A stretch of DNA of 64,000 nt from Eledone cirrhosa. Its lineage: Eukaryota. The position numbers were made by a program, and so were the translations under genes. The DNA is taken from contig OZ024762.1 of assembly GCA_964016885.1 (NCBI GenBank), positions 2,356,001 to 2,420,000 on the forward strand, read 5' to 3'. The notes beneath the pieces were generated by a model, which was not told the DNA's origin, ran no database searches, and saw nothing but the letters and a program-made list of their open reading frames with translations. Of the stretch, positions 4,989 to 6,368 are shown one piece after another; positions within the stretch are counted from its first letter, which is position 1, and every line of letters begins with the position of its first letter.

Positions 4989-5682
4989 TATGTATGTATA
5001 TATATATATATGTATATATATATACATGTATATGTATGTATGTGTGTATGTGTATGTATATATGTGTATATATATATATGTGTATATATATGTGTATATA
5101 TATATAGGAGGAGGTATGTTCTTCCTACTCTTCATCTTTTCCTCTCCCCCACCTCCTCGCTACTTCCTTATCTCTATATTCACCCTTCCCCCTCCTCCAC
5201 TTCACCAACTTTTTCCTTGACTTAAAAAAATCAAATGGAAAAAAAAAATAATTAAAAAAAACGCAAAAAAAAAAAAGAAACCTTGAATTAAAAGCAACTG
5301 GTTTGTTTGTTTGTTTGTCATTTTTTTTTTTTTTTTAATGTATAAATAAATTTATGGGCAAAACCAGCCAGCAGGTGGCGCAAGGGTAGGCCCACCCCAA
5401 GCAAGATGGTTAGATAACGTCCATGAGTTTGGCTGGTTTCGCCGGATCAGTTGGAGACAGTTGCTTCTGACAGGACCCGCTGGAGGGAGTGTTTGAGGAC
5501 TCTGACCCCACGACGACCCTCTCGGGAATAAATGGGTGAAAAAGATGTCGATTACCTTCCATTATATATATGTCTGTGTATATATATATATATATATATG
5601 TTTATCCCAGGTTCAATCAGGGGTAACCACAGTAAGTAAGGTACTCAATACATAGCAGAGAATAAATATATAGTATAGAAAT

Positions 5683-5733
5683 GGCTTCTACAGGACTAGA
5701 ACTGTTTCATTCAGGAGAAATCATCAGGAAGCC
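5683..5733 (-). ncRNA. Type I hammerhead ribozyme (family A)
   Basis: Minus strand GGCUUC-CUGAUGA-UUUC-UCCU-GAAU-GAAA-CAG-UUCUAGUC-CUG-UA/GAAGCC: 6-bp stem I, intact core, stem II, stem III, GUA cleavage triplet. Confidence 0.85.
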
Positions 5734-5952
5734 GACTGTCAAAAGGAATAAATGAACCTTAAAAATTAGGAATGCCTCTCAGTGTTTGTTTGTCTATAGG
5801 TACTTAGCGTGCATTCTTTTCTGCCTTTGTATCACTATATTTCTCTCTAAATATAGTTTTTAAAGAATCCCCTTTCTTTAAATCCATCAACCAATGACTT
5901 CCACCTATCCCAATCGCCACCCTCTCCAACCACCATATTACATTGACAGTCA

Positions 5953-6001
5953 GCTTCCTGATGAATTCTCCCAAATGAAACAGTTCTAGTCCTGTAGAAG
6001 C
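5953..6001 (+). ncRNA. Type I hammerhead ribozyme (family A)
   Basis: GCUUC-CUGAUGA-AUUC-UCCC-AAAU-GAAA-CAG-UUCUAGUC-CUG-UA/GAAGC; predicted cleavage after 5996. Confidence 0.85.
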
Positions 6002-6368
6002 CATTTCTATATTAAATATATGATTATTATCACTAAGTATCTCTATTTGAAGTTTTCGTTAAATTTTAATATGCTACCTCTGTAACTATGTGTTCTTACA
6101 CTCTTTACAAATTATCCCCTGTCAATGTTTGATATGTTTATATATATATATATATATATATATAAATGAGAGGTATAGAGATTGTTTTAGCAAGAAGCTA
6201 ACGGCATTCTATAACATATATATATATATATGTATATATATATGTCAATCGACCTTTAATTTAATTTTTTAATAAATGCCCAGGTTTATTCGCTACAATC
6301 TCTGAGCTTCGTCTTCAGGTGGTATATTTTTTGATCTTCTCAGACATGACATCTAATACTTTGTTAGC

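Follow-up and report, generated by a model that had tools for sequence, protein, structure and literature searches.

Two hammerhead ribozyme motifs lie on opposite strands between 5.6 and 6.0 kb of a 64-kb stretch of octopod DNA (the window, meaning the whole 64,000-nucleotide stretch that was analysed), which raises the question of whether this locus is a working ribozyme cassette or the trace of a mobile element. The second answer is favoured here. With good confidence, the locus can be read as a repeat end that carries a hammerhead and has been duplicated head-to-head in inverted orientation; most likely it is a dead insertion, truncated at its 5' end, of an endonuclease-positive (EN+) Penelope-like element (PLE) from a very high-copy octopod family.

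Hammerhead motif A (5953..6001, plus strand) is of type I and has a stem I of 5 bp, a weak 3-bp A-U stem II and a stem III of 4 bp; its CUGAUGA starts at 5958 (+) and cleavage is predicted after A5996. Motif B (5683..5733, minus strand), also of type I, has a stem I of 6 bp, a stem II made of a U.U mismatch plus 3 bp and a 4-bp stem III, with CUGAUGA from 5727 (-) and predicted cleavage after 5689. Stem II therefore counts 3 bp only in both motifs, and stem III counts 4 bp when A15.1-U16.1 is included and carries a near-palindromic loop of 8 nt. The core of a type I hammerhead comprises the positions C3-U4-G5-A6-N7-G8-A9, G12-A13-A14, A15.1-U16.1 and H17. The full set was found in motifs A and B and in two further arms of the window, C and D; an open stem I and three helices (5-6, 3 and 4 bp) are satisfied in A, B and C, D failing at stem I. 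The G10.1-C11.1 pair closing stem II is missing, being replaced by U.U in B, C and D and by A-U in A, and in the public run X15, 333 of 343 first-mate-plus reads have a T at 5965.

A relaxed descriptor (stem I of at least 5 bp, stems II and III of at least 3 bp each), a check proposed in an earlier reading made from the letters of this DNA (hereafter the sequence-only reading), matched three cores in the window (5958+, 5727- and 37579-) and none in 500 dinucleotide-preserving shuffles; a stricter descriptor gave one match in the window against none in 200 shuffles. The Rfam check proposed at the same time had the opposite outcome, no hammerhead family being matched even at E<=10 in two narrow scans, and hammerheads are absent among the 150 of 363 matches listed for a scan of the whole window, where TA-repeat miRNA models dominate. 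This is likely because stem II is 3 bp long and closed by U.U or A-U instead of G10.1-C11.1. Across the seven arms of the family in the window, 82% of the cells are paired and one pair is changed on both sides, values equally high in 312 of 500 shuffles. The description of the motifs as two complete type I hammerheads thus holds for their coordinates and catalytic core, but "complete" was generous, given the missing G10.1-C11.1 pair and the missing Rfam match.

Each motif is part of a longer arm. Arm A, the direct copy (5943..6019, plus strand), consists of the hammerhead and 23 nt past the cut site, without a tail. Arm B, the inverted and 5'-truncated copy (5605..5742, minus strand), consists of 9 nt of upstream sequence, the hammerhead and an 84-nt tail adjoining (TA)n, and is 93.5% identical to 41680-41787. 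The tail confined to arm B (5605..5665, minus strand) has its 3' end 116 nt from the start of stem II. The shared parts of the arms (5666-5742 and 5943-6019) are identical at 71 of 77 positions (92%) and stand head-to-head, 200 bp apart. The loop between them (5743..5942, plus strand), of which at least the right part is element sequence upstream of hammerhead A, gave no Pfam match in the frames tested. A (TA)n microsatellite at the end of the tail (5565..5600) is the likely insertion target, with loose ends at 5602-5603 that run into TA/TG repeats in three of four public sequencing runs (X1, X4 and X8). The sequence-only reading had placed the inverted repeat within (TA)n; the inverted repeat is confirmed, but only its left arm adjoins (TA)n, arm A ending at about 6019 and being followed by about 115 bp of different sequence. 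No target-site duplication was found at the insertion. The segment to the right of arm A (6020-6135) belongs to another repeat, of lower copy number, whose depth peaks at 6087-6122 in X1 and X15 and of which no second copy was found within the window.

The upstream sequence TTGACAG is common to arms A and B and missing from most family copies, which favours one event over two insertions. Since a single fold-back event would have copied the motif twice, hammerheads A and B are not two cooperating ribozymes. In the mechanism proposed, a PLE protein would have nicked (TA)n DNA, reverse transcription would have begun within RNA left uncleaved, about 116 nt 3' of where stem II starts, and ended some 200 nt 5' of the ribozyme, and the newly made DNA would then have folded back or switched template, recopying the ribozyme region in reverse. 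In read-through RNA from such a locus, a long double-stranded hairpin would replace the ribozyme. TTGACAG was also considered as a splice acceptor 5' of stem I, as in the Penelope of D. virilis; this is unsupported, the loose ends showing no common upstream exon.

The same architecture recurs in the window. The family totals 7 arms at 4 loci, three of which are head-to-head pairs with loops of a few bases to 200 bp; the dispersed ribozyme-bearing family announced by the sequence-only reading is thus real, although its count of at least 5 loci is replaced by this one. Locus C/D (37515..37644), previously taken at 37528-37642 for the first part of the repeat only, is in fact another head-to-head pair, whose loop measures about 5 nt, with two CUGAUGA cores and arms identical at 46 of 50 positions; C (minus strand) closes all three stems and D (plus strand) lacks the 5' strand of stem I. 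Locus F/G (32858..32995), noted earlier as a recurrence at 32872-33000, does belong to the family, but as a third head-to-head pair, joined inside the stem II/III junction and broken inside stem II, without CUGAUGA and with a tail on the plus-strand arm only. Locus E (41672..41787, plus strand), the recurrence placed at 41670-41790, is a single family arm with a full tail that has lost CUGAUGA. The tail is one-sided, B and F having one and A and G none, and in B as in E the 3' end lies 116 nt from where stem II begins. The whole core is kept in 4 of the 7 arms and all three stems can be closed in 3; four arms begin no more than about 10 nt from stem I, two begin in stem II and one extends further. 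An ATG lies inside the core, and in the window copies its frame is closed by a TGA at codon 6. A 34-codon open frame (41686-41787, plus strand), which shares the frame of the core ATG but is separated from it by TGA, extends from the ribozyme exactly as far as the 3' end; it has no match among 1.84 billion proteins, its Atlas scores are all below 0.8, and by analogy with the anole element PAc it may be a relic of an ORF start.

Membership of the PLEs is suggested by this architecture. The Penelope-terminus interpretation of the sequence-only reading is accordingly retained on four features: (i) the hammerhead, (ii) the inverted 5'-truncated copy, (iii) the one-sided tail and (iv) the microsatellite target. 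Features that argue against it include a tail of about 60-65 nt, longer than the 30-40 bp usual for PLEs, a sharp cliff in read depth at the 5' edge of the ribozyme, unlike random 5' truncation, and a stem II/III anatomy unlike that of metazoan PLE minimal hammerheads (min-HHRs). No RT or GIY-YIG domain was found in the 162 window frames scanned with Pfam (about 66 shorter frames were left out), and the window holds no partial head-to-tail tandem of the hammerhead family forming direct pLTRs. A weak RVT_1 match (E 0.005) is present at 7985-8191, next to a fragment (8302-8742) that by eye is a LINE-like RT.

The amplification of the family was followed in public data by aligning reads and contigs of 4 of 17 candidate runs (X1, X4, X8 and X15) to 5601-6135 at 80% likeness. 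These runs represent three organisms, which may be other species, and each contains at most 27% of the words of the stretch; X15 is RAD-seq, i.e. reduced-representation data. Matching records number 20,456 in X1, 17,358 in X4, 10,555 in X15 and 230 in X8, so that the earlier claim of a high-copy family is upheld by three of the four runs. The ratio of stem III depth to spacer depth, from 1.5x10^4 (X1) to 1.2x10^5 (X4), and the 4 loci in 64 kb together suggest 10^4-10^5 family copies, with the reservation that depth is not copy number.

The mass-amplified part of the family is the ribozyme with its tail. In X15, the depth summed over the arms is 8480 at stem III, 4892 at CUGAUGA and 983 at the 5' strand of stem I, and only 139 about 30 nt upstream (2.8% of the core), where it stays flat for about 70 nt before falling near zero left of 5817; depth thus drops by about 97% just 5' of the ribozyme. 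The contigs of X1 and X4 upstream of the ribozyme amount to less than 1% of stem III depth. Towards the 3' end, tail depth is 3278 against 7386 at the cut site (0.44), as expected if each pair carries one tail, and 58% of stem III depth extends through CUGAUGA. Many copies span both sides of the cut site, which indicates that uncleaved RNA was the template. Head-to-head joints (5712>5974 and 5730>5974) occur in X1, X4 and X15, i.e. in three of the four runs, among the 15 of 394 joints listed. Furthermore, 11 contigs of X8 run from 5730 into the reverse complement of the right end of the spacer, and a depth plateau is present at 5871-5942; the continuation in X8 indicates that at least the right part of the spacer is the upstream sequence of arm A, and that arm B is the added inverted copy. 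None of the contigs of the four runs spans the whole element.

The depth cliff may reflect the start of a short template RNA, stalling or fold-back of the RT at the ribozyme, or upstream divergence between subfamilies. The first of these corresponds to a possible but rather improbable reading, in which the family is a non-autonomous mini-element usually copied from an RNA of about 130 nt, from the 5' edge of the ribozyme to the tail, by a PLE protein acting in trans, the long arm being a rare longer copy. Such an element is compatible with PLE ancestry and differs in its template. It would account for the cliff in X15 and in the X1 and X4 contigs, for the heterogeneous loose ends at 5730 (agreement 0.42-0.58 in X1, X4 and X15), for the four window arms that begin within about 10 nt of stem I and for the closure of the core ATG frame by TGA. 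However, RT stalling or fold-back at the ribozyme may account for the cliff, as may other subfamilies whose upstream sequence is less than 80% alike; inverted arms are not independent events, the X15 cliff data are of reduced representation, and upstream sequence carries on in the 11 contigs of X8. A wider hypothesis is advanced tentatively and considered doubtful: octopods would carry a SINE-like PLE derivative, perhaps in 10^4-10^5 copies, whose RNA of about 130 nt starts at the edge of a U.U-closed hammerhead, the ribozyme serving as an RT recognition or fold-back priming signal and not as a cutter, and the perfect hairpins that it would scatter through the genome could feed A-to-I editing and small-RNA pathways.

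The truncated PLE insertion remains the preferred reading. The sequence-only reading had offered a retrozyme as an alternative, that is, a non-LTR element spreading as circular RNA released by two hammerheads. This is very unlikely at this locus, although the type I hammerhead, the lack of an ORF and the low GC would suit it and mussels have retrozymes that likely descend from PLE pLTRs. Indeed, none of the 4 window loci is a head-to-tail tandem, ribozymes on opposite strands mean that no single RNA carries two of them, and in many copies the sequence on either side of the cut site is retained; head-to-head inversion allows no release of a unit-length RNA. Head-to-tail units of 69-72 bp do exist in the runs (joints 6018>5984 and 6019>5987, among the joints listed), a point in favour of a retrozyme, but they consist of the cut-site region (5984-6019) plus 36-39 other bases, contain neither CUGAUGA nor GAAA and fall short of 150-450 bp; these core-less units are small satellites derived from the family. 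It seems equally improbable that the locus is a MITE or fold-back DNA transposon with hammerhead-derived terminal inverted repeats: inverted arms do flank a non-coding middle, TA repeats adjoin and the copy number is very high, but the arms are unequal (138 vs 77 bp), loop length varies between about 5 and 200 bp, some arms are single and the public contigs hold no complete element.

Two other candidates were rejected. A plant LTR retrozyme (type III hammerhead, direct LTRs) is ruled out by the type I fold and the inverted arms, and an ambisense viroid-like element by the fact that the two motifs are inverted copies of one sequence. Pattern scans of metagenome and viral contigs gave no match, and 6 matches to a looser pattern, without stem III and tail, were dropped as chance.

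The claim that the element could cut transcripts from either strand was examined by predicted folding, with models that ignore tertiary contacts and Mg2+. The isolated cores reach a predicted hammerhead-fold probability of 0.002 (A), 0.016 (B) and 0.056 (C). The near-palindromic stem III loop is predicted at -12.8 kcal/mol as a self-duplex vs -1.4 kcal/mol as a monomer hairpin; it thus pairs better between molecules, which fits dimer-type cleavage. Read-through RNAs of the two strands would fold into arm-arm hairpins of -147 and -158 kcal/mol (z -18.6 and -14.4), over which forcing the hammerhead would cost 74 and 79 kcal/mol, and 64-65 kcal/mol at the 37.5-kb pair. As the arms point outward, any read-through transcript makes the antisense arm first. 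According to these models, a ribozyme would be free only in RNA that starts within the spacer, with a fold probability of 2x10^-6 (A) or 6x10^-4 (B). The layout at 5.6-6.0 kb would thus probably silence the ribozymes rather than allow both strands to be cut, and in the source transcript cleavage by the motif is likely to be no more than weak, taking place in a dimer or with the aid of protein. Two-way cutting is argued against at this locus by the burial of the ribozyme and the weakness of the isolated cores, and across the family by the 4 of 7 window arms that lack the core or stem I.

These data also bear on whether the host has kept the locus as a functional two-way cleavage cassette, which is extremely unlikely. 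Such a cassette could explain why A and B keep all catalytic positions despite an 8% divergence of the arms, with five of the six differences sparing the core, stem I and stem III and the remaining one shortening stem I by one outer pair. Selection, however, cannot be shown from only six differences, the stem II C-G pair is gone from arm A, the sister loci are broken, the seven arms give no covariation signal and the read-through fold buries the ribozyme. The locus does not count as evidence that the host has a cleavage device.

Around 5.6-6.0 kb, no gene of the host was identified. Locus E lies between minus-strand exons of one host gene that match DUF4551 in Pfam (50547-51428, 48772-49080, 45417-45806, 42023-42238 and 40441-40623), and is consequently intronic and antisense. 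Another host gene (25440-25769 and 30004-31248, plus strand) encodes a RanBP2-type zinc finger, its relatives carrying PF21388 and PF00641; its 413-aa frame (30007-31245) has 3 relatives among 1506 candidates, the best from Octopus sinensis (62%) and another from Argonauta, which places the host among the octopods. SPATA2/tamozhennic is the label proposed for this gene.

Other repeats are abundant in the window. A second fold-back family with a long AT-rich tail occurs at 32607-32826, 24904-24946, 25217-25301 and 6866-7030; its head has CAGAAGA or CAGATGA in place of CUGAUGA, a short CCC/GGG stem II over U.U and then GAAA, and its 32.6-kb pair adjoins locus F/G. Many unrelated long palindromes with 71-98% arm identity (59406-59693, 36928-37162, 13247-13503, 11696-11836, 32492-32573, 56013-56162, 18919-19104 and 10046-10370), several of them beside (TA)n, are likely fold-back insertions of other families; the one at 59406-59693 has a minimal-hammerhead-like end (GAAAC-GCGC-GTC). 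Motifs resembling CUGANGA...GAAA at 23110(+), 37330(-), 18347(-), 8824(-), 6318(-) and 41550-41580(+) resemble, on visual inspection, decayed minimal hammerheads from other PLE families, and the one near 41560, just upstream of locus E, possibly forms a PLE-into-PLE tandem. In addition, the window contains a mariner-type transposase in pieces (20841-21709, plus strand), a frame resembling a restriction-like endonuclease end (52659-53243, plus strand) and LINE RT fragments (8302-8742 and 60094-60558, minus strand), the last two seen by eye and without a Pfam match. One minisatellite array is found at five places (20259-20717, 28429-29322, 36038-36595, 38030-38817 and 49020-49917), and a TTAA-bounded short repeat (e.g. 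37641-37759) flanks several arrays and interrupts the right end of locus C/D.

The opposite-strand hammerhead layout is already known. In the available part of Cervera 2014 (PMC4209133), opposite-strand min-HHR pairs about 100-700 bp apart are described in Schistosoma, dispersed min-HHRs are tied to truncated PLEs and have low in vitro activity, and in metazoan PLE min-HHRs stem II is long, with G10.1-C11.1 as its closing pair, and there is little stem III. The octopod locus shares its opposite-strand arrangement and spacing with the Cercyon pairs of Schistosoma mansoni as presented there. Cercyon motifs, in contrast, have a stem II of 7-8 bp with G10.1-C11.1 and no stem III, whereas in the octopod motif a stem II of 3 bp stands over U.U and stem III, of 4 bp, carries a near-palindromic loop of 8 nt.

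Metazoan non-LTR retrozymes (coral, mussel and axolotl; PMC7229834) share with the octopod family the type I hammerhead, the non-coding sequence and the very high copy number, and a U.U mismatch likewise lies at the foot of stem II in the axolotl HHR_Amex2. The accessible parts of two sources (PMC7229834; bioRxiv 10.64898/2026.07.22.740005) describe non-LTR retrozymes as head-to-tail tandems of canonical hammerheads, report retrozymes of mussels with a likely descent from PLE pLTRs and give 126,247 type I motifs in axolotl, so that the copy number of the octopod family has a precedent. Retrozymes are 150-450-bp head-to-tail tandems expressed as circles, whereas the octopod family is dispersed and inverted.

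In cephalopods, PLEs make up 6.83% of the O. vulgaris genome, with 190 families (PMC13282606); the words ribozyme and hammerhead do not occur in the parts available of that paper or of PMC8967140, and no paper on an octopus or cephalopod hammerhead family was found in the open-access literature, as judged from listings. The family may already be in repeat libraries, unnamed. Its 17-nt motif is absent from the supplement text of PMC8557442, which is weak evidence, the long cells of that text being incomplete.

As far as the parts consulted of these sources go, the closest likeness is to EN+ PLEs (Penelope/Poseidon, Neptune, Nematis and Hydra), which also combine a type I hammerhead in a terminal repeat, head-to-head inversion, a tail at one end, an AT-rich or microsatellite target and mostly truncated copies. 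PLE insertions with an adjacent inverted 5'-truncated copy, a one-sided tail and a microsatellite bias are described in PMC8557442, where the role of the hammerhead and the origin of the inverted arm are treated as open questions, and head-to-head palindromic junctions have been interpreted as self-priming (PMC3846280). Unlike EN+ PLEs, the octopod family has no linked ORF in the window frames scanned, a tail of about 60-65 nt and 5' ends that pile up at the edge of the ribozyme. The anole PLE PAc nicks AT-rich DNA, uses uncleaved RNA as template, with a ribozyme that cleaves only with the protein, and starts reverse transcription 111-118 nt into an ORF beginning at stem II, as reported in the sections available of PMC11167929; the octopod 3' end lies 116 nt from stem II. 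Next to these systems, the locus adds a probable PLE family with hammerheads from an octopod, whose many short copies form a large sample of 5' ends and fold-back junctions on which template start and inversion priming can be studied.
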